A DNA stretch of 64,000 bases from a virus. The notes below the pieces were generated by a model. It did no database searches. It had not been told where the DNA came from and saw only the letters and a program-made list of their open reading frames with translations. A program made the position numbers and the translations under genes. The DNA lies in IMG/VR virus record IMGVR_UViG_3300031521_000021, positions 52,624-116,623 of that record; one strand, 5' to 3'. Shown piece after piece: positions 1 to 63,100 of the stretch (position 1 is its first letter; the number at the start of each line of letters is the position of its first letter).

Positions 1-388
1 TATACCGAGAAAACTAATGGATGGGAAAATAAAGAAGAAAATATGTGCGATAGATTATGTGGGGTATTTGCAGATAAAGAAACACTTGCTGGTATTATTG
101 AACTTTATAAATATAAAGTATCTAAAAAGAGCGAAATCCAAAATGTCAATGATTTAGAAAATGATATATGTTACACATGGGATTATCCAACCAAAAGGAC
201 AATTGGAATTAGTAATGTCACTGATAAAATGCTTTATAATGTACTAGATTACATGAAGAATTTTGTTGCAAACAGGTCTTAAAATATCTATTTTATGGTA
301 AAGTTGGGTTTGAAAAATAGGGCATAAACGAGATATGAAAGGTTAAAAATCCATTAAAACAAATTAAGATAAATATAAAAAATAAATA

Positions 389-417
389 TTGACATGATTT
401 GGTTAGTATGATAATAT
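389..417 (+). promoter_or_regulatory. sigmaA-type promoter
   Basis: TTGACA(389)-17 bp-TAATAT(412) with upstream TG. Confidence 0.7.
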
Positions 418-1015
418 AATGGTAACAAGTTAAATAAATTAATTGAATGGAGAGTGCTACATATGAGTATGTATAAATTTTTAAATAGTGAAGAAAAAAT
501 AGTAAAGGTAAATTTAAAATCTTTCAAGGAAGCAAAAGAGTATGCAGAAAAAAATAATTTAGTATCATTAACTATGGATTATGAAAATTTTATAAAAGCA
601 TTTGATGATAAGATTAATAAATTAAAAGAACATGAAAAATATAACGATTTATTAATAATCACAGAACAAGCAAAATCAGATAATACAATGGGAGGAAGTA
701 CTGCAATTATAGCTCATGACTTTATAAAAAGAATTATAACTATGCCACTAGAGTATATTAAAGGTTGGTTAGATGAAAAAAATAATCTTGAATGGTTAGC
801 AGACTACAAATAAAAAAATAATTTTGGTTGAAGTAGTATTACTTACCACTTGGTTTATAATCTTTCCAAGAGAATCGAAAAGATGTTTCTATACATAGGA
901 CAATCCTATTTGATATAGATTTAGAGTATAGTTCTAGAAAAAATAATTTTGGAATTATATTCTTTAAATAAAAAATATTAAAAATAAATTAAGAGAATGA
1001 AGGAGAAATGGAACT

Positions 1016-1624
1016 ATGAAAGAATTAATAATACCAGTGAAATTTGAAAAAGGTGATACAATTTATACAACAAAACAAGTTAAAGAAGAAAAGGTTTGTC
1101 ATATATGTGAAGGGAATAAGATAATTACATATAAGGATAAAGAAATGAGATGCCCTGAATGTAATGGACAAGGTGAAATTACTTTAAGCAAAATTACTAA
1201 TATAGTTATTGATGAACCATACGTAATATCATCAACTAAAATAAGCATGAGTAGTAGTGGTATTACTAATGTAAAATATCATGGTTATTGTGGTAGTACT
1301 AGACTAAACAGGTCTGATGTAAATTTATTTGCAACAAAAGAAGAAGCGCAGTCAAGATGTGACGAGTTAAATAAAGAAAAAATTTCTATCAATATTGCTG
1401 ATATTATAATTCAAGATTCATTTTCACAACCATCAATAGAAAAAATTTCTGATAGATTAAATTATTATAAAGAACATGGTAAATTTGAAAAAGATATTAC
1501 AATCAATAAAGAAAAAATATTATTGGATGGTTATATAACATATTTACTTTGCAAGCTATTAAATATTAGCAGTCCAGTTAGGGCAATAGTTGAAGAAACT
1601 CCAGTAATAGGTTGTAGAATATAA
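1016..1624 (+). CDS. Phage protein with DnaJ-type Zn-finger motifs and C-terminal ParB-like segment
   Basis: CHICEG and CPECNGQG repeats; C-terminal ILLDGY motif. Confidence 0.5.
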   Translation: MKELIIPVKFEKGDTIYTTKQVKEEKVCHICEGNKIITYKDKEMRCPECNGQGEITLSKITNIVIDEPYVISSTKISMSSSGITNVKYHGYCGSTRLNRSDVNLFATKEEAQSRCDELNKEKISINIADIIIQDSFSQPSIEKISDRLNYYKEHGKFEKDITINKEKILLDGYITYLLCKLLNISSPVRAIVEETPVIGCRI

Positions 1625-1719
1625 TATGTAGATTATATTTAAGAGTATATTTAGTTGGTACTCTTATGTAAGCATATTAAAAAATATGTTAATAAATTAA
1701 TAGATAGAAAGGAGACAAA

Positions 1720-3998: not shown

Positions 3999-4007
3999 AA
4001 AATATTA

Positions 4008-4050: not shown

Positions 4051-4378
4051 ATACTAACTATTGATAAAACTTATATTTTAACAAATTAATAGGAGGTTAT
4101 AAAAATGAATTTTAATAATTTAGAAATAACATTAAATGATAAAAACAATATTGATTTTGGAATGGAGTTATTAAAAATAAATGATATTTTATGTCAACGA
4201 CTTGGTAAAAGGGTATTAGATAAAGCTATTAATAAAATTGTAAATAGTTTAGACAAAAATAATTGTATTGAAAATTATAGAGAAACAATATTGCCTATAA
4301 ATTATGTAAACATAAGATTAAGTAGTTTAAATTTAAATAGAGTATGTGAAAATATTAAATTATAAAGGAGTGATTAAG

Positions 4379-4603: not shown

Positions 4604-5570
4604 GAATATGTTTGCTTGTGTAATTATAAAGGAGGATTAATATGGACAATAAAGATTATGGATACATAGAAAAAGAATTTAAAAACCAAAAAGAGGATAA
4701 TATGAAACCAGTTAAATTTACTAAATCATTATTAGATGGTTTATTTAAGAAATTTAATACTTATGCTTATACTGAACTTTATTATGATTCGGAAGTAGAC
4801 GACGATGATAGAAGTTATAAAGGTGAAAATATGACTGATGAAGAATGGGAACAATATAAGAACAATTATGATTCTAGAAGATTTAATAATTGGTGTGACC
4901 CTTATGAAGAAGGTATCTGGGGATTTACTAATCAAAGAATTAAGAAATTAATTATATATGAATTAAACAATCTTAAAAAGTATCAATATATTAATTTAAA
5001 TGATATTAGATTTTATATGAATGAAACTGAAGAAAAAGTCAATATTTATTTTTATGGTAGAGATTTAGAAGACTTACAATGTGATTATTGGTTTTGTTTT
5101 TATAAGTCAGAATCTAACAAATGTTTAATCTGTAAGAAAGGTTCTTGTTGGAAACATTCAAGATGTGGTGATAAGAAAATAAAAATTTTAAATTAGAAGA
5201 TATAATAAAGGTTATTAAGATAAAAGGGAGCGAAAGTAATGAAAGTATATAGAATATGGATAGCTTATAAATCAAAAACTAACATTAATACTTTGATACC
5301 ATACAAAAGAAGACGTTTTGTGTTTCATAATGATGAAGAATGTGAGAATTATATAAGAAATAGAATTAAAAACGTTATAAAAGATGTTTGGCATTTTTCA
5401 AGTGCAAGTTATGCAATATTAACAGAAAATGACACATATATAATTGGAAGAATAGTTGAGTAAAAATATATTAAAACCACTTAAAATCTAAATTTGAAGT
5501 GGAATTGTTAAGGCTAGAGATAGCCTTATTTTTATGAATTAAAATATTTTATAATTCTATTAATTTGTTA

Positions 5571-6888: not shown

Positions 6889-9800
6889 TAAATAGTTGTT
6901 GGAGGAGATAATCCTCCTTACATAGATAAAATATTAAATAGAATTGGAGGAATGATTAGAATGAATATATTAAATCTATTTAAGAAAAAGAAAATTGTAG
7001 ATATACCAAAAGAAGATCAAGAGTTAATTAAAATGGCTGAAGAAATGTTATTAAACAAAACAATACGAGCTAATAATATGGGTGGTGGGTTTGATAAAGT
7101 TAAGTTAATAAAATGCACAGGAATAATTACTGATGAATATTCAGATACAACGAGTAAGGATAGAAGAGTAAGATTTGAAACTGATGATAGTTGGATAAAA
7201 GGTGTTTCTTATGAAGATTATGAAATCATAAAAATGTATAATAATTATTTAAATACTGGAAAAATAAATTAAAACAACTTAAAAATCAAATTTTAACAGG
7301 ATGGAGGAATAAAATTTTGGGTAAAAATTGGGTTAGAAACCAAATAAGAAAACAATATAAAAGAGATAAACATGATGAAGAATATCAATTTCCAATGTGT
7401 CATAAGTGTGAGCAACGTGAATTTGTTGTAGAAAGACATACTGACATATGTAAATCGTTGAATAAAGATATTGGACAATCTGTATTCGGTAGGAATAGTC
7501 CAAAGTGTTGTCCTAAAAGAAATGAGATTAATAGGGGTGTTAATAATGAAAATAGTAGAAGAATCTATTAATAAACAAATTATAGAAACATATAAAGATG
7601 AATTATTTCTATTCGCTGAAACTGAAGAAGATTTGAAGGACAAACATATTCTAAAAGTTATTGATGAATATAATGAAGTAGTTTCCATTGCAATGTATAG
7701 TAATTTAGACAATGAAGAATTAGAGTTATACATAGATGGTAGTAAACAAAATAATGTAAAAGATACAATATGCAAAGGAATCTATTTAGATGCTATCACA
7801 AGTCTAAAGAAAGGCTATAATGTATGTAAATATATTATTGGTTATCTAATGGATAAGAACAAAACTATTTGGTGTTATAGCTATTGTGATGCAGTTGAGT
7901 TTTGGAAGAATAAAATGAATTGGTTTGACTTAGGTGAAAATATTTTTGTTAATCAATTAAGTTAGGAGGAAGAAAAATGAAATATAATTTCTTTGAACAG
8001 ATAATGAAAGTTTGTGATAATTATAATATAAATGCCACTTTAAAGTTCATAGGTGATGTTAATACAAAGATTAATGAACTCATAGAACGTGGAATAAGTG
8101 AAAGTTGGATAAAAGAGAATATAGAAGTAATAGTTTTAAAATAAAAGTAAATAAATTAATAGAAACAGTATTGAAATTATAACTGGAATATGATATATTG
8201 ATAGTAGGAAATACATATCAAGTTAAGGAAGTTAATGTTAAAATAATATTTATGAGGATGGTGTGTTAAAATGAAAGTTAAATTTATAAGAGATGAAGAA
8301 TTTACACAAGAAACATGGTTAAATGAAAATGAAAAAGGACAAGTAATAACAATTCATAAAGGTGAGACTTTTAAAACTGGATCATGGGGATATGGTGGTA
8401 TAGAATCTGTTTTGACTAATAAAGGTGAATGGATTTGTGATGTAGATTGTAAAGAATTTAGTGAGTTATTCGAGATACTTGAAGAAGAAAGGTTAAGAAG
8501 TGAAGATGGTTATCACTATATAAAGCAAGGATTAAGAGAAGGTATTATTGGAATATATGAATTAGGTTGGAAAACATCTTGTGATTTTTATGATTTGACA
8601 GTTACGACAGTAGACGAAATTGTAAAAGGGTTAAAAGAAAAATATAATTTTGATGAAAATAAATCTTTAGTATTTATCAATGAAAACATAAAAATAATAG
8701 TAACTTAAAACAAGAGTTTTATTAACTCTTTGAAATCAATTATCAATTGAAAGGAGATGAGAAAGATGTTAAATAAAACAAAATACGAAAAACAATTAGA
8801 ATTAATTGAACAAGCATTAAAAGAAAAATTAGAAGAACTACATAAATAAAATAAAAAGAATGGAGATAAAGGAATGAACAAGAGAATTTATTATAAAAAA
8901 CTAAATAAATTTATTAGTGAAAATATTGATAAAAAGTTATATGGAAAAATTGTATATCATGATGTGTGTAAAAATTGCGAATATAAAGATCCCAATTGTA
9001 GAATGGATTGTGATGGTATGCCTAGATATTTTAATTTTCAATTTTATAATAAAGAATTTGATAAATTTATGACGAATGCATTAGGTAATACTATAGATTT
9101 TGACATTTCAGAAAAAAGAATAAATAATAAATTAATGCATTATGTATTAAGAGATAAAAATAAATATTTAAAAATAGTTTATAGTGAAGATTATATAACA
9201 GTTAAAAATAAATTTAGAATCAGTCCATTTGATTATGAAAAAGAATTAGTAGGTGTATTTGAAATTAAAGATAGAGGATGGAAACTATAAAATAAGGAGG
9301 TATGTTAATTATGAATGGTGAAGAAACAATAAGAAAAGATATTAAAGAAATAGAAAAATTATTATATCAAGCTGAACACAATTTAAGAGGATATTACTCA
9401 CTATTAGAGTGTATTGACGAAGCAGAAATGATAAAAGAAGAAATATTATCTTATGATTGCCATACTAATGAACACATAAAGCGTATAGATTTATTAATTG
9501 AAAAATATGAGACTTTATCAGATGCTGAAGATACATATTATCAGCTAGAAGAAGATGGTGTATTTGATGATTGGGATTAATTTAGAAAGAAGGTGAAAAT
9601 ATGAATTATAATTTAACACAAGAATTTGAAACTCTAGCTGATAACTATTCATACATAATTGATAGTAAAAATAATTTTATTGGATATATAAATGAATTTA
9701 TTTCAGTTAAAGTAGGTGGAACATCGGCTTTAATAGGTGAAGATAAAGTTATCTTTAAACAAGCTAAGACTAGAAAAACAGATAGTCAAGGGAGAAGTTA

Positions 9801-12354: not shown

Positions 12355-15300
12355 ATTAAAGAGAATATACAAAAGATAAAACCTCCTTGTGGGGTAATTC
12401 TAGTATATCTAATAGGTATTTTAGAATTAATTCACAAGTGAAAATCTCTGTGGATTATAAATATTATAGGTGACGACTGAGCGTCAAAAGGAGAATTTTT
12501 ATGTTAAATAATGAACAACAAATTAAAAAATTAAATTCACTAATTAATTTGGTGAAACCAGCTATGGAACAACATGATATTAAGAAAGTAAGGGATTTAA
12601 ACAAGCTTTATGTTGAAACTCTTAGTTCTATGAATTGTGCAGTACCTAAAGAAGAAACATGGATTAATACATATCATGAAGGTGTAGAAAGATGGTGTGA
12701 TAAAGAATTTATGGAAGTTTCAGAAAACCCAGATAAACATGGCGAATTTACAGTATCTTTGTTACAGGATTTAGAAAGAATTAAAAGAGATATAAAGGCA
12801 TTATGTAATAAATCCAGTATACCATTAGTTAAATCTTCATCAAATTATGAAATTGATTTTGGGGCAGAACTAGAAAAGAAAAGAGTTGCTAGGGATAAAA
12901 CACAAGAGATATTCAATGCCACAATATTATCAAATGTGCCTTTAATTGAAAAAATGTTGAGAAGCAGATTTAAAGTTATATCTGAAAATAAAAATGGATT
13001 TGAGGAATTAACTATTATTGAATATACTAATAATAGTTATACTCAAGAAATCAGGAAATATACTTTTAAATATGATGAAGTTCAATATAAATTAGGAGAA
13101 TTAGTTGATATCACTAAAAAAGAACTGATTAAATTTGTATTTAGATTTATATCTTTAGATAATGATTACATAGTTTAATGAAGTTAATTAAATTTACCGT
13201 TTTTATTAAATATCAGTTTATATAAGTCATAAATAAATTAGAACAATTAGTTAAATAAAATAAGAATCCTATGTTTAATTGAACATTTAGAGATGTTTAA
13301 CAATGATAATATGGGATTCTTATTTTATAAAATTATAATAGCAATATTAATAATAATTATGTATATATTTTACATTAAATGGTATAATAATAAATATATA
13401 AATTTGAAAGGGTGGATTTTATAATGGATATTAGTGTTTCTAGTGATAATACAGTTACTAACAGACATAAAGAAAGAGTAGAATGTTTACTAAATAAAGA
13501 GAATTTTAAATTAAAAAGTATTTCAGACAAGTGGTTTATTGGAACGTCTGATAGTCATACTGATAGGGTTTATATGGTTGATAAAAATACAAAGCAAGAA
13601 TACTCTATTTGCTTCTTTGATAAAAAATATGGTTATGAATATAAGGTGTTTAAAAGAGAGCCTTTACCAGATTATGTTTATGATAAGATGATAAAACAAC
13701 GTCCAGAATATAAGACAGGGGTTACTGAAATAGATAATGGAAATATAGAAATATTTATTCCAAGAAGAAAGAATTTATTTGAAGAAATTATTGAACAACA
13801 AAAGCTAGAAGATAAGATTTTTAATTCGGGATTGTTTATTTTAAATGTTACATCAATGGATGATATTGATAATAACTCAATTCAAGTAATTAATGGTATT
13901 CATAAATGTATTATAATAAAAATGATGACAAAAAGTGATATTGATGCAACAGTAACCCACTTTAATATATTACGAGAGAAATTCCCTGATATAGAAGTAT
14001 TCACATTGAAATGTAATTCATCTAAAGCAATAATTAGTGATGCATATGATTATTTAGAAAATAAGGGATATAATATTGAAACTGGAGTTAAACCAGTTAG
14101 TTTATAATAAAAATAGAAATGAGGCTATGTAAATGGAAAAGATAAAAACGTTAAGTTATAAAGAATGGGAAAAACTTAGTAATGCAAAAGATAAACAAGA
14201 AGAGTTTAAAAATATTCTAGGTTTAACGGGTAGATATATATTAGGTGATACCGCAGTATCAATTGAAAATTCTGAAATATTAGGAGCTTATAAACACAGA
14301 GAAAATGGCAGAGACTTTTATTATATAGTTGTAAATATACTTAGTAAAGAACATGCTTTTGCTTGGTCTTTATTTGAAGTATTGACTAATGGTGAACAAA
14401 GAGAAAGAGATAAACAAAATTAAGAAGGCTGAAATATGTCTTCTTTTCTTTATTATATGGTGTTAAATAACTTGTAATAAGCTTATAAAATCGGTATTTT
14501 AATAAAAAATATTTCTATTAATTTATTTAAAAAGTATTGCTTTATTGGTAAATAGTGCTATAATTATATTATCAGATAAGGTATAAGCCATTCGGCAGTA
14601 ACCAAAGAAAGCTATTCTTACTTTATAGCTGAATCAATACATATTTAATAAATTAATAGGTATATTAAAATAAGGAGAGTGAAATCATGGGATGGATAAA
14701 CAAAGAAAATTTAAAGGTTAAAGAATTAAATGATTTACATCCAGCAGGAAAATTATTTGAGGGTGTGAATTATGATAGTGTAAAATATTTTAAAGATGAT
14801 GATACAGATAAACTATGGGAAATTTCATTGTGTTCTGATGGAAGTTTTGATAAGAGGGTTAAACAATTAGAGAAGGCACAGAAGGTTAGCAGTTTATTGA
14901 AAAGTTTTGTATTATAAGAGGAGGAGGGATTATTATGGGATCATTTAAAGTAAAGAATAATGATAAATTAAAAGGCATATTTATTGGATTTGTTAAAGGT
15001 GAATATGTGGACTTGTTTACATACTGACAAAGAGTGAGATTAAATATTAATGATGTTGAACTAGTGGAGGTGTTATAAAATGTTAAAAAGAAAAATAGGA
15101 GACAACGTAAATATTAATCCATACACAAATATAACAGGAATAATTATAGATTCTAAAGAAATAACTCAACCTTTTAATTCAAACTATGATTATATTGTAA
15201 AGTTCAATTGTTTAGTTGATATGGGTTGGGGTTGGCAAGAACAAGAATATTATAAAGATGATGAATTAGATAAACTAGAAAAGAATTGGAATATAATTAA

Positions 15301-17047: not shown

Positions 17048-17151
17048 AATTAGTATTAACTTTTTGGCAATATAAGTAAAAAAATACTTGTATTGCTTGG
17101 AAAATTAATATATAATATAGATATAAACAAATTAATATAACAAAGAAAGGG

Positions 17152-47076: not shown

Positions 47077-48592
47077 ATTCAAATAAACTCTATCTTTTAA
47101 TAAAACATGAAGGAGGTGCGTATAATGATATCAATAAATAATTATAGAAAATGTGGTATAGCAATTAATTTATTAAAAATACTAAACAATGAAGCACCAG
47201 ATGGGATTATTATGTGGGATACGTCTTTATCAGATGTTCAACATGTAATTTATGGAATATGTAATGTAAGAGCTGGATATGAAGGTTCTATTAATAATAG
47301 AGAAGGGCAACTTCATATAGTTGAAGTAAATAAACATAAAAAATCAGAAATTGAAACTAGAAAACATTTAGAAGATATAGTTAAAAAATTAGGTGATGAA
47401 TATTATGAACAAGTAAAAATATACGAATCTATATTTAAAGAGTAAATAAGTGAGGTGTTTAGTAACAATGATAAAGATATTAACTCATAAAGACGATTAT
47501 AAAAAATATAAAGATGCAGTAGAACAAATATATGATTGTCTTGAAGACTGGGATTATATTATAATACTAGACAAACAAGTAGATAATGATTATGCTTCAG
47601 AAAGAATAGCAGATAAACTTGAGGTAAGTGAAAATAAATATTATAAGACAAGTGATGGTGAGCAATTTATTGTAGTCTATCATTAAAGAAAGGAGAATAA
47701 TTATGAGTATTCGTAGAGAATTAAAAAAACTCAAAGATGGTTATTATATATGTCCTTATTGTGAAGGAAAAGTCGAGTGGTTTGGATATGATGACGAAGG
47801 TGGAGAATATCAATGTTCTAAGTGTCATGAAGTTTGGGGAGAAAATAGAAAAGTGATAAGAGACAAATAAATATTAAAGAAGCGGTGATTTTAAGATGAA
47901 AGGAAGATGTAAAATGAATATAAATATGAGCAATTATAACCTTGAATGTGGAAATTCAACAGGAGTATATTTAAATGATTATGAATTAAAAACAGGGGAT
48001 GAAGTAAAAGTATTTACATTTAATAGTAGTTATTTAGTTTGGACATATAGAAGTTTAGGAGTGGTAGAAAAGATAGAAGATGGTTTTGTAAGAATTGTTA
48101 CTAATAAAGAAACTACAAAATTATGTAATGATGATGTTTCAAAAAATGATAGAATTAAATTATCAAAAAAACAATATGATTATAAAAAAGGTGAAATGGT
48201 AGCAAAAGGAAAGATACATGATGGATTTATTGTAGAATAAAAATGAGAATAATAGAGGAGTGTTAATGAAATAATGAAAGCAGGAAATTTTGTAAAAGCA
48301 AAAGAATTAATCCAATTACAAGGATTTAATTTCTTTAATAGAGACTTTATTGCTAAAGATGAAGTTATAAAGATAGGAGGAGAAGTTCAAGCGAATCAAT
48401 TTCGTATAATTACGACTATAAATCATTATAATGACAATCCTATTATTATAGATAAATATACCTTGGAAAATAAATTTGAAATTTGTGATAAGCCGATTAT
48501 ATAAAAGAGCCATTTTATGGTAATATTATAAAATTAGAATGGCATGAATAGGGACTTTAGAGGGTGAAAAAAAGTTATAAGGAGTTGATATT

Positions 48593-49072
48593 ATGAGGAA
48601 CATATCTGAATTTAAAATAGAAATAGGAACTCATTATAAGGACAACAAAAGAGATATCGTCATCACAGATAAAGAATATAGAAAAGTATATAACAAAGAT
48701 GGTATATTTAAACAAAACCAAAAATGGTATAAATACAAATGCAACATCTGTACATGGGAAGAAGGTTGGATAGATGAAGCTAGTTTATTAAGTGGAATTG
48801 GGTGTTCTGTTTGTACAGGTAAAACTGTAGTAGAAGGAATAAATTCAATTGTAAATACTGATAAATGGTTAATTCCATATTTCCAAGGAGGATATGATGA
48901 GGCTAAGTTATATAGTGCTAAAAGTGGAAAGAAAATATTTCCTAAATGTCCGATATGTGGAATGGTAAAGCGTAAACAAATGTCTATTAAAACCATATAC
49001 TATCAAAAGTCTACTGGATGTAAATGCACTCCAAAACGTGATTATAAGAAATTTATAAATACCATCAAATGA
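48593..49072 (+). CDS. Zinc-ribbon protein (endonuclease-associated type, no nuclease domain seen)
   Basis: CNIC, GCSVC, CPICG motifs. Confidence 0.55.
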   Translation: MRNISEFKIEIGTHYKDNKRDIVITDKEYRKVYNKDGIFKQNQKWYKYKCNICTWEEGWIDEASLLSGIGCSVCTGKTVVEGINSIVNTDKWLIPYFQGGYDEAKLYSAKSGKKIFPKCPICGMVKRKQMSIKTIYYQKSTGCKCTPKRDYKKFINTIK

Positions 49073-52000
49073 AGAATTGATGGTGTTTTAGAAAGGAGTG
49101 AAAATATGAAACAAGAAACATTAGAGATTTTGAGAAATGATTTGAATAAAAATAAAAAGTATGAAGAAAGTTGGGAAAAGAATAAAGACTTTTTTTATGA
49201 ATTTGAATATCTACCCGTTTTAACTAAAAGAGATAAAGATGGCATACTACAAGAAGTTACTCATAGTAGTAATAGATTATTATTTATAAGTGAGAAAGGC
49301 GAATAAATTAATAGAAACAAATTGACAATATAAAATAATAAGAGTAATATTATGGTAATAATAAATTAATAAAGAGGTAGATAAAAATGAATAAAGCAAA
49401 AATGTCAGAACAATTTAAATTATTCTTGCAGTTACAAAGAATGGACATTAATAAATATGAATACATATCAAAAGATTGTACGGATTATAAGGTTAAAAAT
49501 ATTCAAACTGGTATAGTAGGTTATATTAGATATTAAGGAGGAAATAGAAATGTTACAAGAAGTAGAAGTAAAATGTCCATATTGTGAAAGTAAAGAAAAA
49601 GATGTAAGTATGTTTGGTGCTGATTTATTTGAGTATAAATGTTTAAAGTGTAAAGAATATTATCAAGTACAATATGCACGTATTCCAGTTGAAGTAAAGA
49701 AATTAAGCCAAGATAAAGTTAAGAAAAGAAAAGAGTTTTGGAATGATTTAAATAATAAATAAAGGCTTTAAAGTTGTCATTTTAAGGTAATAAATAAATT
49801 AACAGAAATGGAGTGGATGTTTAAATGTGTGAAATCAAACAAGAAGTAAAAACATATATAATAAATAAAACTTGTGATAAATGCAATAATGGAATCATGA
49901 AACAAATAAAAGTTAATATTATAGAAGAACCGATAACTTATACTCATAAATGTAATAATTGTGGGCATGAAGAGATATTAAATCAAAGTTATCCTAGAAT
50001 TGAATATGAATACATTAATAAGGAGGCTTAAACAATATGTTTAAAGTAAAGTTAAGTAAATTAGCAGATATAACAGATACTTATATCTATGGTGGCGATA
50101 GTTATGAGTTAAAAATCACTATAGAAGATGGGGAAAAATATATTGAAGTTTCCGAGAAATCAGAAATAAATAAAGATAGGATTGAAGAACTAAAGTCGCT
50201 TATCATAGAAGATAAAGCATTATTTCAAAATACAGTAAATAGATATGTTTGTACTCTTGATGATATGGACGGAAGTGCGGTAGAACAGTATTTAAAGAGA
50301 TTAAGATATCATGTTCAAGAATTAAATACAAAGCTAGTGATCTAAGACATAGATACTACATATGGAGAGATATAAGAAAAGGTTATATTGATAAAGATGG
50401 ATCACCACTAAAATGTCACAAGTGTAATTCTAAAGAGTTAGAAGAGTATGGACAGTATTATGAAGAACATTATTGTATTGAATATGGTGTAAAGTGTAAA
50501 CATTGTGGTCAGAAATTAGGATATTGGGCATATGGTAATTGGGGAATGTAAAAAGCCATTAAGTTACTTCTTTTATCTTAACTTGATAAATTAAAAATAA
50601 TATAAATATATAATATGAAAGGAATTGAATAATAATGAATTATAAAAATATAAAAGAATTACAAGAATCTTTACATAAAGAAATTAATGAGGTTTTAAAA
50701 GTAAATACAGAACAAACATATAAAGATTTAAAAGAAATTGCCAATAATATAATTAAAGAATATGAATTAGAAGCTAAAAGATTTGAAAAGAAAGAAAAAC
50801 TAAAAAGAGATATAAAAATAATACCAGCGTTTGATTACTTATTAACTGATGAGGGTGATAAGAAGTATGGTAGGAGTTCAGCGTATATGTTATGTAGTGT
50901 TGAAGGAGAATTGGGCAAAGTTGTATTAGAAGTTAACACAAAATGGTTTTTGCCTATTACATCGGATTATATGTGGAAAAGTGAAGTCGTAGAAAGAAGA
51001 GGTCAATTTGGATTAGATTGTACATATAGGTGTTGGTATAATGGAGCAAGTTCTCATATATTTTATATATTAACAGATAAAGAGCTTGATTTAATGCATA
51101 TAGGTGGAAGTAATGAATATCAAAATGGATATGTACCATATGCTACAACTAAAGAACAGGAATTCGTTGATATATTAATACATGATGGTAGTAATAAACT
51201 ATTTGAAGAACTAGAGAAAGTTTATTTTGGATCACTAAACCACTAAAATATTACTTTTAAAATAAATTTAATTAAATAGGTGAAAATATGGGTTTTGGAT
51301 TTATGAAAACTATGGAATTGGAAAAAGAATTATTAGATAGAGATTTAAAAAGATTAAAAGAAGATAATGAATTGGCAATGATAGGTAGACAAGAAGCCTT
51401 GCAGTTGAGAGATAGATATAATTTATCTAATGAACTATTAAAACAAGGTTTATTGTCAGGTATATCAGTTGAAGAAATGGAGTATATATTAAATAAAGTT
51501 AAAAATAGTGACATAGATATAGATTATAATATTGCACTTGAAGTATTTTTAACTTATAAAGATTTAGAAAAGAGAGTTAATAAGAATAAATTAATTAAAG
51601 GAGGATATTATGGACATAAGAGAGATATTAAAAAATGGTGATATATGTGAACTTAAATATTATGAAGGGATAACATTTGGTTTATATATGGATGGATATT
51701 TATATAAGAATCAAGATAATGATGTCATGTGTCAAATAGGCGGATTTGAACCAATGGTAATTAGAGTTATGAGACCATCTTCGATGAGAAATGCATTTGA
51801 ATTATTTAGATATGCAGATAATTATAATTGGAGTTATAAAGAATATGGTCAATTCGATGTTGCATACGAGAAATAAAATAATAAAGGAGTTTTTGTTAAA
51901 TGGAAGAGATAAATGTAAAAGGTATAGTACAAAGAGAATCTGGAATAGGTTGGCGTTTAAAAGATATTGAAAAAGAATATAAATATTATGATGTAGAAAT

Positions 52001-53509
52001 TATAAGAGGTATTAATGATTTATTTAATAGAAATTATAAAGAAATTTATTTGCGTGAAGGTGACGAAGTTGAAATTTCTATTAAAATAAAAAAGAAAGTT
52101 GAGGAAGAATAATGTTTTATGTATATAGTAAAAGTCCAGAAACTTATATGGATGAAGCATTAAGCACTAGAAAGAAAAAGAAAGTATATTCCGTTCAATA
52201 TAAACATGGTTATCCGTTCTTTACTTTCTATGAGAACGAGAAATGGGTGACTAGAAGTGCTAAATATTATGTACCAACAGAAAATTAATAGATAGGAGAG
52301 TTAATATAAATGGATAATATTAAAAAATTACTAAAAATGCTAAACAATATTTGTGACAACAGTAAAGATTTATATATGGGTTGTTCAGTTTGTCCCAATC
52401 ATAATTGTTGTAATAAAGGAGTATGGGAAAATGCTTATAAAGAGTTAGAAGAACTTGAACAATTAACATCTAAATAAAAATTTAATTTTAAAGGATTGGA
52501 GGTTTAAAGATGAGAAATGCTATTATAGGGAAAATAGAGGATTTCAGAATAACAAAAGGCAAAGCTTTATACACTGATAAATCTTATTGTAAATATTTAA
52601 AACGTGTTAAAAACAGAAATAAACTATATGATAAATTAAGAAAGCTAGGGAGATAATATATTTAAAACAAATTAATAGAAATAAACTATTGACAATTGTA
52701 AATGGAAGATGTAACATAATATTGTAAGTATTAATAAATTAATAGAAGAAAGGAAATGATAAATGATGAAATCAACAAATGAACTTAAAAATAGTAAACA
52801 ATTAAAATTACAACAAAGATTAAAAGAGAATACTGAGCGAATAAATATGGAATTAGTTGAAATTGAGAAAGCTCAAAATAAGTGGGAGTCAGATTTAGAT
52901 GATTCTAAACAATATTTTGAAATTCCAATAATAATAAAAACCCAAGAAGTAAAAGACTTATTACATAATCAGGGATACATAATTGATAGAATTAGCAACG
53001 ATATAAAAGTAAACACAAGTAGAATATATACAGATAAAGAGGCTTATAGACTAGCAGTTCATAAGAGATATACTGGTAGCGATAATAAACAACAAGCAAA
53101 TTTAAAAAATAATTCTACAAGCAATGATGAGTATCAATATTATCCTTTAAAAGAAAATTATTTTGATTTATTAACTATGATTAGTAAAAAATTAAATAGT
53201 ATTAATCAATAAGATAAATTAAGAGGAGATGATTAAACAAATAAAATTATAAGGAGAGAAAAATAATGAATGAACAATCTTTAATAAAATTAATTGAAGA
53301 CTATTGCAAAGAAAATGATTTAAAAGTAAATGATATCTATAATAAAATAGCAGAACTTTATCAAGATAAGGAATATGGTGTTAATCCCAATGTTGAAAAA
53401 GATACTTACTGTAAAAACAATGGACTAGATTACATAAGCATAACAGGTTGGCTACAAGAATTAAATATAGTAGATAGGTATGTAACAATTTTTAATAAGA
53501 TGGTAAGAG

Positions 53510-54088
53510 GTGAATATAATATTGGATGAGGAAATTTGGAAAGATATCGAAGGATATGAAGATTATTATCAAGTAAGTAATATGGGGCGTGTAAAAGGCT
53601 TAAGTAGAATTATAGAATGTAAAAATGGATTTAGGCAATTAAAAGAAAGAATACTGACATTTATGAAAGATAGGGATGGTTATCTTAAATTGAGTTTATC
53701 CAAAGATGGAATATCAAAACAATATATAGTACATAGATTAGTCGCTGAGGCTTTTATATTAAATCCAAAAAAATTACCACAAGTTAATCATAAAAATGAA
53801 TTTGAAAAATGGAATAATACAGTTGAAAACTTAGAATGGGTAACAGAAAAGGAAAACATAAATTATGGAACGGGTTTAAAAAGAAGAGCTGATAAAAGGT
53901 CTAAAAGGGTTTATCAATATTCAAAAGATTATGAATTAATTAAAGTTTGGAAGTCAGCAACAGATACAAAAAAGAATGGATATAATGCAAAGCATGTGTC
54001 AGCTTGTTGTAATTTAAAAAGAAAAACTCATAAAAACTTTATATGGAGTTTTGAATTAATCAATACAGATGAGAGGAAAATAATATGA
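53510..54088 (+). CDS. NUMOD4-HNH-NUMOD1 homing endonuclease
   Basis: EIWKDIEGYEDYYQVSNMGRVK; VHRLVAEAF..NP..LPQVNH...NLEW. Confidence 0.92.
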   Translation: MNIILDEEIWKDIEGYEDYYQVSNMGRVKGLSRIIECKNGFRQLKERILTFMKDRDGYLKLSLSKDGISKQYIVHRLVAEAFILNPKKLPQVNHKNEFEKWNNTVENLEWVTEKENINYGTGLKRRADKRSKRVYQYSKDYELIKVWKSATDTKKNGYNAKHVSACCNLKRKTHKNFIWSFELINTDERKII

Positions 54089-54972: not shown

Positions 54973-57900
54973 ATTAATAGAAAGAAGTGATGAATTAAAA
55001 TGGTATTGTATTTAGAACATATTTTAAGTGGGAAAACACAAACATTGAATAATATTATATCTGTATCAGAAAAGGAAAGTATAATTGAAGTAACTACAAC
55101 AACAGAAACTTTTAAAATTGATACAAATAAAGTTAAATTTACATTAACTGTTTCTATAAATACAAGAGATAAATTGATGGATGAACTAAATATAAGAATG
55201 GATGAGTTATTAGAAAAACAAAGAAATAATCAAATAACAGATGGGCTACAAGATGTTGAAAATATAAAGGATTTTATTAAAAATTATACAGGAGTTAGTG
55301 AACATGATAAGAATGAATTAATTGCGCAAATTAATTTACTTGCATTTGAAGTTATTATGAAGAAAAAACTTAGTGAATAAATGTAAACAATTGGCTTAAA
55401 ATGGAAATTTAAAAAGCTTATTGAAAGGAGCAATATTAAATGGAAGTAAAAATGATAAGATGTATTTGTACTGAGAATGGGCGACTAGAAATAACAATAA
55501 ATAGAGAATACATAGTGAATAAAGAGGATTTAAATTCTTACAGGATAAAAAATGATATAGGAAAGTATTTATGGTATAACAAGGAATATTTTATAGACAT
55601 GGAAGAAAAGAAAGACCTAAATATTATTGAAGCAAGCAATTTGCCTTATGGTACTGAGTTTAAAGTTAAAATTGACCACTATTATAAATATGATGATGCT
55701 TGTAGAATTAGGGATAATACAAAATTAATAGCAGTCAATACTCAAAGTGGAATTAAATTTAAAGAATATGCTGATATTGAAAGGGCATCAAAAACACTTA
55801 TTAATGCTAAGTTTGTTCCAATTCAATCTTCAGTAACTTTTGAAGAAGTAAAGAAAGAATATAGAGAAAATAAGAAACCCATACAAAGTTGTGTTAGTGA
55901 AAGAATATTTAGAAATGGAGTAGATGTTGAAATAGGATTTTCTGAAATAGAAGGTCAATGGATAGTATTAGATTAAAAAGTTGATAAGATCTTGAATTTA
56001 TCGTAATTTGAATAAATTAATATAAGAATAAAATATAAAGGAGAATAAACAATGAATGATTTAATAGAGTTAATAAACAAATTTGTTAATTATGAAAATT
56101 TTAGCATACAAGATTTTAAATATATAAAAGAAGATTTAGAATTAAATAAATTAGACACAAAAGAAATGGAGAAATTTATCAGAGATATCAGTGAGAGATG
56201 TTCACAATTTATAACAGAATTATCTGAACAATTCAATTCTTTATCTGAAGACCAAGTAAAAAGTATAGATATATTAAATAAGAATAACATTAAATGGGAA
56301 TTAAAAAGTGATTGGAATTTTAACAAACAAGGCTATACATATAAGGTTGTAGTTGATAGTAAAGAGGAGGCTAAATAAATGGAGAAAGCATTTAGAATTG
56401 AAAGCGATGCAGAATATTATATAGATTTAGAAAAATATATAACTAACGCAGATGAACAAAGAAGATTAGTGAATGAGTTTCTTAAAGATCACAATATAGA
56501 AGCTAATAAGTATTGTGTGGGTGGAAGTGGTTTTGTAAATAAACCATTTAAAGAATTTAATAAAGATGAAATTATACTAGATATATTACCTACAGAAAAA
56601 GATAAAGAAAACTTTGGTAAAATGCTAAAAAAGGAAAATGATTATGGTTTATGTGGTTTTAAAAAGAAAAGCAAAATTAGTAAAGAATTTCAAGACTATT
56701 GTATAGAGACTAATATGATTATAAATATAAATGAGCCAGATTTAAGAGATTATTTGAAGTCTTTAGATTGGTATAAATATAGTAGAAGTTTAATTAAACA
56801 TGAAGACATATACTATTTAAAAGTACAAAGTGATTTATTAAAAGATGATGATATTCCTGAAGGATTTACTGAAATTAAAATAAGTGAATTTTATAAAATA
56901 GTTGAAGAAAGCAAGGAGAATAAATAATATGACAGAAATTGAAAAACAATTATTAGAAATAAAGAATTCAAAATATGGTTTTGATTTTATGAAATATTTA
57001 GTGAATTTATTAATTCAACAAGACGAAAATAACAGAACTATAATAGAATCAGAAGTGCGTAATACAATAGAAAAAGAACACAGAGAATATATGGAGGGAC
57101 TTAGAAAAGCAACTGAAGATTCTAAGAATTGGAATTTAAAGAATACAGATTATATAGGTGGACAATTCTATTCAAATAATGATTATGCATGGTTTAGGTA
57201 AAATAATGTTTTTATGGTATTTAGGAGGTGAATTAAAATGAAATTAAAAGAAATGATTATACCAACAAAACAATTCATTGCTGATGTATTAATTCTAACA
57301 GGTTTGACATATTTATTAAAAGCATTTTGGGACGAACTAGAAATTCTGTTTGATGGAGGAATACAAGAAAGTATATCTGATACAGTGATAGCTATTATTA
57401 TAATTTGGTTTGTATGGTATAAAATAAGACAATGGATAGTCATTAAATAAGTTTGAATAAATGGAATATATTAAAGGAAGTTGAGGAGTGAATTATTATG
57501 AAACCAGCTTATATAAAACCAATTAGCAATAATGCGTATAATTGCATAAATGCGAATGGTAATGGAAAGATTGTAGGAGTAGTATTTTTCAATCTATTTC
57601 CACATTACAAAATAGAATATGATATGTTTGACATAAGAGATGAATCAAAACATCGTGCTGTATTTGGATTTATTCCAGTATCAGAAGTTGATAGTGGAAT
57701 GTATGAAATTGTAGATTATGAGTTTTAGTTTTTAAACATAAAATGAGATATTTAACAGGAGGTAGATTATGAACAATAAACTAATAAAAATTATTCATGG
57801 TGAAGATTTTAATAAAATAGAAATTATCATAAATAAAAACAAAGAAATAGAATTTTCATGTATGGATTCATATTGGAATAAAAGTTATGTTGAATTAAAT

Positions 57901-59396
57901 ATAGATAAAGCAAAAGAATTAGTAGAAGCAATTAATACAGCCATTACTAAAATAGAGGAGGAAATAAATAATGAAAATTAAATATAGATTAGATTTTGTA
58001 ATAGATGCAATATTAGAACTTAATGAGGATGATTTAACAGAAGAAACATTAACTGCAATGAAGAATGGAGAACCTTTTGTGACTGATAAAGATAGGGAAA
58101 ATATGATTGAGGATATAGCTTTTAAAATGGGAATTAAACCTAGTGAAATTAAAATAGAAAATGAAGATATTAGAGTTATAGAAAAAGTTGAGGAGGAAAA
58201 GAAAGATGTATAAAAGATGTATTAATGGACAAGTAGATGGAGTGTCTGAAAATAGAATATATAAGATAAGTGAAAATAATATAAAAGTTGGAACAGATGG
58301 TATCTCTAGATATTGGATATTAGATGATTATGGTGTTTACAATGAATTTAGAGCAGATAGATTTATTGATGTTGAAAAATATTACTTTCAATTATGGCAT
58401 TGTTTAGATTTAGATGACTTAGACTTAAATAAGCAAGCAAAAGATATTATTGACAAATTAGATTGTCATTATGGTGGTTATCAAGTAGACGATGAAGAAT
58501 TGTTAAAAGCGGACTTAATTTTATTTGATATTAAGGAGATAATGGATTTAAGTTGTGAATTAGATGATGATATGGTTATGTATGGTTGTAATTATGAATA
58601 TTTAATGACTAAGGAAACTATGAATAAATTAGGATTAAGTTAGCTCGTTTTAAAATATTAGTTTTATCAAGAAAAGGAGGAATAATGAAATGGATAGGAT
58701 AGAGTTAGAAAATGGTTCAATAATTGAAAGTATAGATAATATTGGAGAAAATACTAGAAGTAAAAGAGGACAAGAACAAGTAGATAAAATTATAAAAAAT
58801 AATGAAATACCCAAAAGAAGGAAAGGCGGAAGTATCGAAGAAAGTGCTAGAATGGAAGAATGTATAAAATCACAAATGAAAAAGGATAAAACAATGAAAA
58901 GTTTAGAATGTACTAGAACAGATTGTGAATATTTTTATGAAAATTATTGTTTAGCTGATAGAAAAATATTTATCAATGAAGATGGTTGTAAAACTTTTAA
59001 AGAAGGAACAAATATTTTATATAAAGGTAAAATTGATATATGTAATTGGTGTAAACATAAGCCATTTTATAATTGTGATGTTAATTCGAGAGACATCGAA
59101 ATTGCAAAAGGAATAGGGATTATAAAATGTAAGGAGTATGAGGAATTATGAAGATAAGGATATATGAAAGTGAGATTGAAGAAGAAATTGTAAAAGCTTT
59201 AGTTAATGAAGACACTAAGCAATTAATAATGAATGGTGATTATTATCATGACAAGATAACTGAGAAAATACAGGGATTTTTACAAGGGTTAGATTATACA
59301 AAATTTGGATATGAATGGTTAGAAACTAAAGTTATTAGTGAAGATGATGACATGTATTCTATTTGTAGATTTGATATGTTATAGGAGGGCGTAAAT

Positions 59397-60077
59397 ATGA
59401 ATAAATCAATATGTTTAAAAACTGATGAAGTTAGATATATATTAGATGATAAAAAGAAAACTATAAGAATACCAATTAAAAGAACTCCATCAAACGATGA
59501 ACCTTGTGGTTATGGATTTTGGAAAGCTTATGAAGAACGTGATGGTAGATGGTATATTAAAGATTATACTCATTCTCCTGTGTGGTGGACATTAGAAGAA
59601 TACATAGATAAATATAGTAAATATCGTGTAGGAGATGTTATTTGGGTAAAAGAAACTTGGACATTTTGTAATGGATTAAAGTTGTGTAAACCTAGTACTA
59701 TGAGTAAGAATGCAATTGTTAATCAAAAGAATGAAAATTTAGTATGGTATAAAGCTGATGATAATGAAGAAATTCCTGATAATTTAATCGTTGGAGAAAA
59801 ACTAATGAGCAGAGATAAATGGAAATCATCCGTTCATATGCCTAAAGAATTATCAAGAATATTTTTAGAAATTGTTGATATAAAGATTGAAAGACTTCAA
59901 AAGATGAATACAGAAGATTTTTTAAATGAGGGAGTTAGAGAATATACAAAAGAACCGAAAGAAGCCTATATAAAATACTGGAATGGTTCTTTGAGTAAGA
60001 ATAAGAAAGATATGTATAGTTGGGAACAGAACCCTTATGTATGGGTAATTGAATTTAAAAGAATAAACAAACTATAG
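59397..60077 (+). CDS. ASCH/PUA-like conserved phage protein
   Basis: ILD.KKT.R...GDVIWVKETW...WKSSVHMPK..SRI.LEI...NPYVWVIEF. Confidence 0.75.
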   Translation: MNKSICLKTDEVRYILDDKKKTIRIPIKRTPSNDEPCGYGFWKAYEERDGRWYIKDYTHSPVWWTLEEYIDKYSKYRVGDVIWVKETWTFCNGLKLCKPSTMSKNAIVNQKNENLVWYKADDNEEIPDNLIVGEKLMSRDKWKSSVHMPKELSRIFLEIVDIKIERLQKMNTEDFLNEGVREYTKEPKEAYIKYWNGSLSKNKKDMYSWEQNPYVWVIEFKRINKL

Positions 60078-60378
60078 GAGGAGATGATTATACTTGATAA
60101 AAATATTACATGACTTTGAAGATTTAAATGATAAAACAATAAAATATTATGAAAAATGGAATATGTTTGTGACTAATAATAAAGAAATATTAATACATAA
60201 AATAGAATATGAATACGATGAATCTTACAAATATGGAGTTTTGGAATTTGAAAATGAATGTGAAATAAAATCACTAATTGTTTTAGATGAAAATTTTAGA
60301 AAAATACTATTACAAGAAGGTGTGATTAATCAAGAATATATAAATAAAATATCAAATGAAAGAAGGTTAATTAAGTAA

Positions 60379-60882
60379 ATGAATTTTATAAATAATGAAA
60401 ATGTAATAATTCAAAATAGTTTGTTAATACCATTATCAGAAGAATGCAATAAATATGTATTTCAAAATTGTAGAAATAAATGGATTACTAAAGATGGAAT
60501 AGAAATAGAAGTAAAAGATATGAGTACAAAACATATAGAGAATTCGATTGCTATGATTGATAATATATGTTCTAAAGAATGTATCAGTGTAAATAGTCAT
60601 GAAATTTATAATATTCTAAATGAAGAATTAATAAGAAGAAAAATAAATGCGAATAAAGTTAATGAATGGATTTTAAAAGAAAATAAGTTGCCACAACAAG
60701 ATACAGTAATTTTAGTAACAATAAAAGACGATAAAGGCGAAAATTATGTTAGGTCAGCACAATATTGGAATGACCATAGATTTCATACCCTTAACAACTT
60801 TGGTTTTGCTTCTGATATTACAGATGATGTTATAGCATGGCAATTATTACCTAAACCATATAATGAAAATATTCATTCATAA
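60379..60882 (+). CDS. Protein with C-terminal DUF551-like domain
   Basis: WI....KLP...VIAWQLLPKPY. Confidence 0.65.
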   Translation: MNFINNENVIIQNSLLIPLSEECNKYVFQNCRNKWITKDGIEIEVKDMSTKHIENSIAMIDNICSKECISVNSHEIYNILNEELIRRKINANKVNEWILKENKLPQQDTVILVTIKDDKGENYVRSAQYWNDHRFHTLNNFGFASDITDDVIAWQLLPKPYNENIHS

Positions 60883-63100
60883 AAAAGATAGCATGGTTTA
60901 AATATATTGAGTATAATATAAAGAGATATGAATAATTAAATGATTATATTGAGTTATAGGAGTGTGTAAATAATGGATAATGAAAATATTTATGATGACC
61001 AAATATGTGAAGCATGTGGCAACGAAGTAAATGGAGATGAAGCAGATACTTATGGCGGATTATGCAAACATTGTTATGATAATTATGATGAAGATTTATT
61101 AAATAATACAAACATAAAGTGTACTACCGAATGTGACTTACTGTGTACTAAAAATTCTAGAAGTATAGGTATTAATTTTCCTGGAAAGGGAGAACATTTT
61201 TCAGATTATAGTCAAGGTTGTGCAGATTATAATAGTGTTATAATTAATACTGTAGATAACTTTGGACAGAGCATTAAAAGGAGAAGATAGAATGTTAAAA
61301 AGTAATATTGTTAGTTATATAAAATTAAGAGATAACATGAACATGAAAGAAATAGAAAAAGACCAAGCTTTATGTGAAGCTGATGTTTATATATTAGAAA
61401 TCGGATATCAATTATATTTAAAAAAGATATCCTTAGATGTGATACTAGAAGATATTAAATTGGGAAGTAAAAATATTTTAGTTAATTCTAAATTAGAAGA
61501 GATATTGAGAGATATTAATCATTCTGGATGTGTAATACATCAAAATATATTAAAACAAAATATAATAGATAAAGAATTAAATAATATAGGAATCCAAGTA
61601 TCAAAAGGTATTGATTTAATAAAGAATATATAATTGAGTATTAAGGAGGAAGAAAAGTAATGAGAATGGTTTTAGAAGATATAAAATCAAAAGCAGAAGA
61701 AAGAGGCTATAAATTTTATATAAGAAATATGGATAATTCAGAATTATATTATACCAAGAATAACATTATCTTAATTCTATATCCAAAATGTGGAGGATTC
61801 GCTTTTAATTTTTATATAGATGAATCAGTAAATTTAGAAACTATTCAACATGGTTCATTTATGGATGATGAGCATTTTAAAAGTATAGAAAGTAATTTTA
61901 TTAAATATGTTGGTATGATTGAAAAAGGAAATAAATTAAATAATAAATGATTAAGAGGTGGTAAATTATGAAGATAATAAAAGTAGATAATTATGATAGA
62001 GAGTTATATGATGATAATCTAATTGCTGAAAATATTGTTAATGTATATTATGAAAAATTAATCGTAGATGTATTAAATAGCGAGTCTAAAAGAAGTGACG
62101 AGGATTATTTTAGACTTGTAGAAGACGATTATACACTATTTAAAAGAGATTATTAAAAATAGATAAAATATTAAAACAATATATAATCTATAGTTAAGGG
62201 GAGGATTAATATGAGTCGAGGAATTAACTGGTTTAAAGATTTTAAAATAGAGGAAGAAATTATTGATAATATATTTGGACAAGATATTACATACAGTGTG
62301 GAATTCTTAGATGGTGATAGTACATCTTTTAGCGAAGGCAATATAACCAAGTATCAAGATGCCTTTAAGAAGTATGGGAATATATCAATTCCTTATGTAG
62401 AATATGAATATTATTCAAAGCCTAGATATCTAAAAGAAAGATTTATTGAACCTAAAACATTATCAGAAGTTTGTAGTAAAATTTTATCTAATTGTATTTT
62501 AGATAAATATGATATCAAAAGCAGAATTGAATGGTTTAAAGAAATGTCTGATAAAGGATATTATTTTAGCTTTGATGCGTTTTAGATTATTTAAAATATT
62601 TATAAGGAGAGTGAATTTTAATAAAGATAGAATTTGAAAATGGAACAATAATTGAATCAATTAAAAATGTCGAACATAACAAACGAAGTATTAAAAGGCA
62701 AACCTTCAAAGTATCAGATGATTTTTGCAAAAGAAATATAAAATGTAAAACTTTAATATTGTTCAAAAATGAAAATAATTTGGAAACTTGTTTTGAAAAA
62801 TTAAAAGATGATGTTGATTCAATTAAAAAAGTATCATATTCAAAATATAGATTTGAAATTGAATTTTTTGATAACATTATAATTTATGGCATAGTCTACA
62901 ATGGTTCTATATCAAAAGCCTGTTGGGTTAATAATATATATGTAGACAGTGAATTAAATTTAAATGAGGATGATTTTAATGTCTTATATTCAATGATTTT
63001 AGATTTAGAACCACACAATCGGATTATAAGTTTTAAAATAAGTAGTTAAAAAATGTATTTTAATTAAATGTTAATAAATTAATAGAAGGAGAATATATAA

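Follow-up and report, generated by a model that had tools for sequence, protein, structure and literature searches.

The palindrome TAAAA-N6-TTTTA recurs between genes throughout a 64,000-nucleotide stretch of viral DNA (the window), which comprises bases 52624–116623 of the 116,623-base IMG/VR record IMGVR_UViG_3300031521_000021, here called G000. On the strength of sequence comparisons, we cautiously favor a reading in which these palindromes are addressed crossover joints for the exchange of gene modules. The joints appear to be numbered, because related phages keep copies with their own centers in order while the intervening genes are replaced. They would be crossover joints because universal arms, a strictly conserved and unique 6-bp center, and sequence identity that ends at the site edges together fit the cores of heterospecific lox, FRT and dif sites.

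Enrichment, placement and spread of the palindrome

The motif is real. Exact copies in the window number 22, whereas 100 dinucleotide shuffles average 2.51 (standard deviation 1.70, maximum 9) and none of them reaches 22; the enrichment suspected when the window was first read from its letters alone (the sequence-only reading) is thereby confirmed. The whole record holds 33 copies and only 2 of the reversed pattern. Enrichment is confined to a single spacer length, as a spacer of 6 gives 33 copies in G000 versus 2–7 across spacers of 2–11, and 34 copies in the Bacillus phage SPbeta versus 0–3 for other spacers, in keeping with the original description of a spacer fixed in length and variable in sequence. 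Moreover, when all 5-N(4–8)-5 palindromes were counted without prior assumption, this motif ranked first in eight of eight related genomes. In G000, 31 of the 33 copies are intergenic and the other 2 lie on gene edges. Thirty copies are wholly non-coding, whereas 300 simulations of just the non-coding DNA under a first-order Markov model give a mean of 1.88 and a maximum of 6, which speaks against an AT-rich intergenic background as the explanation. If up to one mismatch is allowed, the motif is present at about 42 of 138 gene junctions.

All 20 copies that the sequence-only reading listed as exact are so, and two more, at 18946 and 25431, had been missed. Its claim that a regulatory core at 20.5–28.7 kb is free of the motif is wrong, because the copy at 25431 lies inside it, as does an intergenic one-mismatch copy at 20943. 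Among the 20 sites it gave as imperfect copies, 16 have one mismatch and three have two (43964, 50560 and 55985), but 49065 has three. The observation that the left-arm TAA often serves as the upstream stop codon stands for nine of the 22 exact copies (280, 8706, 16667, 45642, 48502, 51244, 52475, 57199 and 63047) and for the one-mismatch copy at 20114, where TAA ends the gene at 19730–20116. The arms had also been said to extend often. A longer palindrome (CCACTT...AAGTGG) is indeed present at 5477, but as a rule the arms extend only weakly in the window. This palindrome, at 5477–5502, reads CCACTTAAAA-TCTAAA-TTTGAAGTGG around a one-mismatch copy, and is the sole copy inspected by eye for long arms; because long arms are present, it might fold.

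The motif is a family-wide signature, specific to phage DNA. Copies outnumber those of a backwards control in SPbeta (34 versus 2), phi3Ts (30 versus 2) and c-st (31 versus 7), and also in five IMG/VR records: G003, a complete 137-kb provirus of 30% G+C (48 versus 3), G002 (43 versus 11), G004 (32 versus 5), G005 (11 versus 4) and G006 (13 versus 3). By contrast, the motif is not enriched in a 5-Mb Bacillaceae genome with an SPbeta-like portal (117 versus 137 for the control), and because of this lack of enrichment in a host genome, the idea that a host factor recognizes the site was dropped. G002–G006 were found in IMG/VR with a composite pattern of the palindrome and a second motif, M2, described below, by taking records with several matches; most matches were single and due to chance. 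G002 and G004 are mosaic relatives that share only patches of 72–99% DNA identity with G000.

The SPbeta site is longer, TYTNRA-TAAAA-N6-TTTTA-WWYARA; it forms a dyad of 28 bp (arms of 11 bp, center of 6 bp) whose symmetry reaches positions −6 and +21. In the clostridial group these outer positions recur, but less strongly. This layout is that of a Xer/dif-type core (inverted arms of ~11 bp around a 6-bp center, 28 bp in all), with only the inner 5 bp of each arm strong in the window. The site is also slightly asymmetric relative to gene direction, because T is nearly absent from the last spacer base (3 of 108 oriented copies in G000, G002 and G004) and the first spacer base has no mirror bias. 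The downstream flank of the site is better conserved than the upstream flank.

The phage itself is a clostridial member of the SPbeta/c-st group, as judged from its portal, a YonO-like protein, a YopQ/MrpR-like gene pair and other gene content. Kinship was established through the portal protein and through PHROG and Pfam scans; megablast and blastn searches with parts of the record gave zero matches among GenBank phages. Clostridium phages c-st and D-1873 and Bacillus SPbeta-like phages have portals ~40% identical to that of G000, and a 935-residue protein resembles YonO, the RNA polymerase of SPbeta (24.5% identity). A profile search of genome contigs with the portal alignment confirmed at least one locus, and in IMG/VR no confirmed relatives were obtained for the MrpR-like protein or for a 440-residue protein at 30635. 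The record, rated 47% complete, is 25% G+C with a strong purine skew, and its plus strand carries nearly all window genes. These include the YopQ-like/MrpR-like pair, a MazF-like gene and a XerC-like recombinase, and the portal, a terminase, an exonuclease, TubZ/PhuZ-like and FtsK-like proteins and a replication initiator are encoded outside the window. The YonO-like single-chain RNA polymerase (G000 16628–19435, minus strand) and the TubZ/PhuZ-like protein (27473–28588) both lie outside it, and together they suggest a plasmid-prophage lifestyle as in c-st. Relatives of the phage appear to be widespread in peat: 24 peat-metagenome runs from 23 studies hold window positions 44001–54000 wholly or partly, six of them with at least half of the sampled words.

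Shared sites, constant centers and replaced genes

Relatives share copies of the palindrome together with their centers. Identical 16-mers, spacer included, number 16 between G000 and G004 (33 and 32 copies; 0.98 expected by chance), 17 between G000 and G002 (1.27 expected), 14 between G002 and G004 and 21 between SPbeta and phi3Ts (0.82 expected), and none of 5000 simulations reaches the observed sharing in any of these four close pairs. Distant genome pairs share 0, 1, 1 and 3, which is the chance level. Once G002, a rotated circle, is brought into register, every shared site falls in the same order and orientation. As a control, we looked at isolated shared 16-mers of any sequence. Between G000 and G004 there are 819, swamped by chance in AT-rich DNA; in SPbeta and phi3Ts, the only usable pair, 6 of 40 contain the full motif.

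What surrounds the shared sites is mostly unrelated. We compared 700 bp on each side by blastn and tblastx and found homology on neither side of 8 of the 16 sites shared by G000 and G004 (one side in 7, both in 1), of 7 of the 17 shared by G000 and G002 (one side in 6, both in 4) and of 8 of the 14 shared by G002 and G004 (one side in 3, both in 3). Identity mostly ends within 0–3 bases of the motif edge. For example, 11 pairs from G000 and G004 have outer flank windows that are less than 60% identical, and in 10 of these pairs exact identity continues for only 0–2 bases beyond either end of the 16-mer. The intervals between consecutive shared sites, which we call landmarks, have likewise changed: 12 of 30 show less than 5% tblastx cover, and the maximum is 53%. 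Neither the 1.37 kb between the copies at window 18281–19684 nor the 1.2 kb between those at 51244–52490 has homology to the DNA between the same landmarks in G004 (1.52 and 1.3 kb, respectively). The cassette idea of the sequence-only reading survives to this extent, in that collinear copies with the same spacer and unrelated DNA on one or both sides mark exchange joints, and their geometry fits a tyrosine-recombinase core. Integron-like shuffling does not survive: the sites have no foldable attC-type structure, and because each spacer is unique and keeps its position, exchange would be slot for slot rather than a shuffling into one attI.

The 6-bp center differs between joints, is constant at each joint and is unique per genome. 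This follows from two observations. First, 15 aligned site pairs lie in DNA that is homologous yet diverged: none of their 90 spacer positions has changed and 3 of 150 arm positions have, whereas the flanks (25 bases on each side) differ at 141 of 773 (18%); the independent sample is smaller than 15, because some pairs represent the same site in three genomes. Second, no spacer is repeated within a genome in either orientation in six genomes, when about 6 repeats would be expected (P = 0.003, a value that overstates the true significance because the six genomes are related and not independent).

Several borders of homology coincide with the motif, which is found where relatives differ by an insertion, a deletion or a replacement. 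Homology blocks of SPbeta and phi3Ts begin or end at a motif edge at 83687, 86899, 87603 (after the left arm), 92392, 92747, 113536 and 113654. At SPbeta 87599–88415, two copies surround yoqH–yoqI, and phi3Ts has in their place a single copy that combines the left context of the first with the spacer of the second. When natural SPbeta relatives were searched by megablast with one query, the alignments had 11 distinct internal ends, four of which coincide with motif edges (positions 536, 551, 1487 and 1889); with a second query, three records end at one motif edge. In the window, an 839-bp patch at 37386–38224 is 99.3% identical to G002 amid diverged DNA; it starts at the one-mismatch copy at 37386–37401, ends just past an M2 motif and, judged from its sequence, has the look of a single gene exchanged recently.

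Fourteen of the 22 exact copies in the window are landmarks. Those whose spacer recurs in both G002 and G004 lie at 4065–4080, where neither flank is homologous, 7280–7295, 18281–18296, directly 3′ of the XerC-like gene, 25431–25446, 31999–32014, again with flanks lacking homology, and 52475–52490. At 25431, both flanks are homologous (72–85% identity) and the spacer is identical. Landmarks with G002 lie at 8706–8721 and 58651–58666, and those with G004 at 280–295, 19669–19684, 39323–39338, 48502–48517, 51244–51259 and 63047–63062. The remaining exact copies are at 14486–14501, with a reverse M2 motif and a promoter-like site after it; 16667–16682; 18946–18961; 30021–30036, where the aligned copy in G002 has one arm change and the same spacer; 32980–32995; 44691–44706, followed by a forward M2 motif and a ribosome-binding site; 45642–45657; and 57199–57214. 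By our own crude gene calls, the window also has 24 intergenic one-mismatch copies, which, besides that at 37386, start at 811, 5482, 6213, 6336, 10877, 16272, 17077, 20114, 20395, 20943, 28719, 32680, 35714, 37342, 38658, 40046, 40624, 43319, 46440, 47084, 49769, 55397 and 57739.

Proposed mechanism of exchange and competing explanations

How might such joints work? Most likely, co-resident related phages or prophages would cross over inside the site, the crossover would require matching 6-bp centers, as at lox, FRT or dif cores, and a dedicated recombinase-fold protein would perform the exchange, so that modules would be swapped slot for slot and gene order would not be scrambled. In its fullest form, this would be a natural system of cassette exchange running from Bacillus to Clostridium phages, in which a recombinase-fold protein acts on 30–50 heterospecific 28-bp sites per genome and the center serves as a positional address, without deletions within a genome. 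This fuller version is possible, and we put it forward tentatively.

Candidate enzymes are the XerC/XerD-like tyrosine recombinase of the window (17161–18078, plus strand, 305 residues) and YomM or YopP in SPbeta. The former had been described as intact, and it does align to XerD (E = 5e-25) with the full catalytic set R, K, HxxR, H and Y; its orthologues in G002 and G004, at the same position, are 43–44% identical. Nevertheless, that this particular enzyme acts on the palindromes seems to us unlikely. Proteins of the PF00589 family occur in all five related records searched, which says little because such proteins are common in temperate elements. A phmmer search of SPbeta YomM and YopP against solved structures gave no matches.

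Several observations weigh against crossover at the sites by a dedicated enzyme. Some concern the borders themselves. Against a non-coding null, 5 of 24 block ends between SPbeta and phi3Ts fall within 10 nucleotides of a copy, compared with 7.2% expected (P = 0.026), a modest excess, and most block ends lie elsewhere, often at a ribosome-binding site, at a start codon or within genes. The expectation that breakpoints fall at the motif is therefore borne out by several block ends at motif edges, but not by the majority. In laboratory crosses of phi3Ts and SPbeta, 15 of 16 recombination sites described in the source lie in ordinary homology, and the one non-homologous hybrid junction is placed there as "following yosA" (10.1101/2020.05.06.055103). 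A motif copy lies beside yosA at 116415, and the laboratory hybrids Hyb2 and Hyb3 are pure SPbeta through the yosA region. Contigs from four peat-metagenome runs showed no clean joints at motif sites, although many joint sides are shorter than 30 letters and unreliable. Among the contig ends listed, a few loose ones fall near copies (one at 52481 inside a spacer, one at 45663, and a joint that links 51171 with 51264) and give no basis for a count.

Other objections concern the protein and its site. Conservation of the candidate recombinases within the family is poor: the XerC-like protein is 21% identical to the YomM-like region of G003. SPbeta YomM (yomM, 40301–41302 of NC_001884) and YopP (yopP, 78691–79767) show HxxK for the expected HxxR in one low-confidence MAFFT alignment with the XerC-like protein. 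From this alignment, YomM and YopP, like MrpR, may be DNA binders rather than enzymes. The strongly conserved arm is only 5 bp, short for the arm of a tyrosine recombinase. Moreover, Bacillus and Clostridium phages have identical arms, whereas other operators have diverged, as seen when SPBRE is compared with its probable counterpart M2 (both discussed below); identity of arms across hosts would need an unusually conserved binding specificity. Finally, the weak asymmetry of the site along gene direction hints at a tie to transcription.

The best-surviving alternative is that the palindromes are sites of a conserved dimeric phage DNA-binding protein, perhaps a dead recombinase-fold protein such as YopP or YomM, paralogous to MrpR, with a role in expression or genome architecture and with exchange as a by-product. 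Dyad symmetry, half-sites one helical turn apart and the lack of hairpin potential all suit such a protein, as do the position of the sites between a stop codon and the next ribosome-binding site in strings of co-oriented genes (the 42 of 138 junctions noted above), their weak asymmetry along gene direction, and a fixed spacing, measured by eye, of ~34–37 nucleotides between site and −35 box, both at PaimR of SPbeta and at several early promoters. The possible absence of the second catalytic arginine from YomM and YopP (low confidence) would fit as well, and there are precedents in Cluster O mycobacteriophages, which carry over 30 dyad repeats (PMC4351075), and in stoperators (PMC4351075, PMC9283540). 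Yet a spacer that the protein does not contact should drift, and it does not change at any of 90 positions where the flanks differ by 18%. Nor would such a protein explain why spacers outlast the replacement of both flanks, with identity mostly ending 0–3 bases from the motif, or why no spacer is repeated within a genome. In the MrpR binding data as published, sites with the motif alone have no peak (PMC10516654), and a sigma-A-like promoter follows only 2 of the 22 window copies. We consider this alternative rather doubtful.

Two further candidates for a role in expression or DNA binding were set aside. The motif is not a promoter for YonO, which is reported to transcribe the late operon from a single mapped start (PMC5467207). 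The HU-like protein YonN was considered as the binder for its family-wide conservation, and was set aside on the geometry of IHF/HU complexes.

An improbable explanation, in our view, is that the copies are passive linkers of short homology, at which ordinary recombination or annealing of the Sak4/YorG type would use the 16–28 identical bases without a dedicated enzyme, much as has been suggested for PeSL cassettes. Mosaic junctions also occur at M2, as at the right edge of the 99.3% identical patch, at ribosome-binding sites and at start codons, and SPbeta is annotated with a Sak4-like annealing protein. The identical stretch at shared sites is 16–19 bp. Identity of that length is very short for homologous exchange, which counts against passive linkers. 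In addition, linkers of this kind would not need universal arms, which would invite ectopic deletions, the commoner M2 repeats would be better substrates, and invariant spacers in homologous context would be left unexplained. The precedent of modular shuffling by recombination between repeated cassettes of promoter and stem-loop (PMC2839356) is a further argument in favor of this explanation.

It is very improbable that the palindromes are operators of the MrpR-like repressor, as the sequence-only reading had offered for the recombinase-fold protein at 23918. This 387-residue protein (23918–25081, plus strand) follows a 465-residue YopQ-like protein (22531–23928), and the pair at 22531–25081 is syntenic with SPbeta yopQ–yopR, its members being 53% (MrpR-like) and 58% (YopQ-like) identical to those of G002; the match to Pfam MrpR_N_CB is weak (E = 0.00082, 20.4 bits, under the 27-bit cut-off). 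Chromatin affinity precipitation sequencing (ChAP-seq) of SPbeta MrpR, as reported, gave 10 peaks, every one at the element SPBRE (PMC10516654), compared with 34 palindromes in that genome. The SPBRE core, AATATGTATA, with ACAAAT upstream, was recovered upstream of 9 of the 10 named ChAP-seq target genes. The palindrome does not fit the 15-bp SPBRE motif, and the two sequences are unrelated. At SPbeta PaimR the order is terminator, palindrome, SPBRE and −35 box, with palindrome and SPBRE as separate elements side by side; SPBRE overlaps early promoters.

The MrpR-like protein probably has a different operator in M2, AAYAAATTAATAGAA, as the counterpart of SPBRE, because M2 resembles SPBRE in position and in sequence (ACAAAT..AATAT). 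The M2 core occurs 84 times forward and 43 times in reverse in the record, far more often than the palindrome, and sits, whichever way it points, ~10 nucleotides ahead of TTGACA −35 boxes, or else immediately 5′ of a ribosome-binding site. Examples lie at 25152–25166, 25241–25255 and 25331–25345, and three successive units of M2 plus promoter come before the MazF-like gene. M2 occurs within 60 nucleotides after the palindrome in only 5 of the 22 window copies. The MazF/PemK-like toxin domain encoded at window 25491–26258 spans residues 53–159 of 255, with N- and C-terminal extensions, and is followed by a 220-residue protein without a Pfam family.

Finally, RNA hairpins, as intrinsic terminators or processing sites, are hardly credible, even though palindromes follow stop codons and the SPbeta copies at 2629 and 116415 lie inside annotated stem-loops, as the mean folding energy of 28 nucleotides is −1.2 kcal/mol versus −0.6 for shuffles with 6 of 22 copies unfolded, pairing is about at chance at the spacer ends (7 of 22) and at flanking positions (6 of 22), the arm sequence is invariant with no covariation, the stem is five A-T pairs rather than the G+C-rich stem and U run of an intrinsic terminator, and some SPbeta copies sit between a terminator and the next promoter. 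The palindrome is a double-stranded DNA site, not a hairpin.

Known repeat systems and implications for phage mosaicism

We found no description of the motif in the literature covered, in full text and including an SPbeta review, a comparative SPbeta preprint and the MrpR paper; the 1999 SPbeta genome paper lay outside this scope. Heterospecific lox and FRT sites, engineered for cassette exchange by Cre and Flp, have 13-bp arms and 8-bp centers, and the identity of the center decides which sites pair. The palindromes resemble them in universal inverted arms around a short center, and two different flanking sites permit a cassette to be replaced with its position preserved. Unlike these engineered sites, the palindromes would be a natural array of 30–50 addresses, with an enzyme that is only a candidate. 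Integron attC sites are long imperfect palindromes that fold as single-stranded DNA and are used by the IntI integrase with one attI and a common promoter. The palindromes, by contrast, are 16–28 bp with negligible folding and are fixed sites spread genome-wide, and the recombinase of the window matches XerD (E = 5e-25) far better than IntI4 (2.5e-9 over 72 residues).

The nearest described system is that of the pdif/dif modules of Acinetobacter plasmids. As described, these are 28-bp sites of 11-6-11 layout that occur in many copies per replicon, flank accessory modules, are clustered in accessory regions and are absent from the backbone; they resemble the chromosomal dif site of the host and are used by host XerC/XerD. 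Their C and D arms differ, successive sites point in alternating directions, and their modules are found in varied plasmids and contexts (PMC6449649). The phage motif shares with them the many copies of an arm, 6-bp center and arm at accessory gene modules. It differs in having symmetric, phage-specific arms that are not enriched in a host genome, and in having unique, position-fixed centers, with slots that are kept while their contents change. PeSL cassettes of T4-type phages carry working promoters and terminator hairpins and recombine through homology of the repeats (PMC2839356, PMC4122927). Both are short repeated intergenic motifs, PeSL lying among small non-essential early genes with modular shuffling between related phages. 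Unlike PeSL, the palindrome has neither a promoter (a sigma-A-like site follows 2 of the 22 window copies) nor a stable hairpin, and the part shared among its copies is 10 fixed bases plus a joint-specific center.

Among repeats associated with regulation or of other kinds, Cluster O mycobacteriophages carry more than 30 invariant 17-bp dyad repeats that are mostly intergenic, denser in one genome arm and not tied to promoters; their 3-bp center is usually TTT/AAA, and the account given there places few if any of them in insertions, deletions or rearrangements (PMC4351075). Unlike these, the palindromes have joint-specific centers and coincide with replacements. Cluster A stoperators, according to the descriptions available, are short asymmetric sites that number in the dozens across a temperate phage genome, occupy the small gaps between genes, point along transcription and bind the immunity repressor (PMC4351075, PMC9283540). 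The palindrome core is instead symmetric, and the SPbeta master repressor maps elsewhere, so the palindromes are not stoperators in this sense. SPBRE is likewise a repeated intergenic element of the same phage family; it adjoins the palindrome at PaimR and is bound by a recombinase-fold protein, but its sequence is different, and its approximately ten copies are reported to overlap or abut early promoters (PMC10516654).

Dispersed intergenic repeats are thus an already known kind of phage sequence, with Cluster O repeats and stoperators as examples. The novelty lies in finding phage-specific universal arms, a conserved positional center and slot-for-slot replacement together, in a family that spans Bacillus and Clostridium. 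Phage genomes are mosaic, and whether their parts are joined at dedicated linkers or at random places followed by selection is a long-standing question. In this family, which includes SPbeta and the large clostridial plasmid-prophages of the c-st type, there is a defined joint sequence whose center outlasts the genes around it. The idea is directly testable with standard Bacillus subtilis genetics. If an enzyme that acts on the joints were found, it would provide a natural set of mutually exclusive recombination sites, and would explain how accessory and anti-defense genes can turn over while gene order stays intact.

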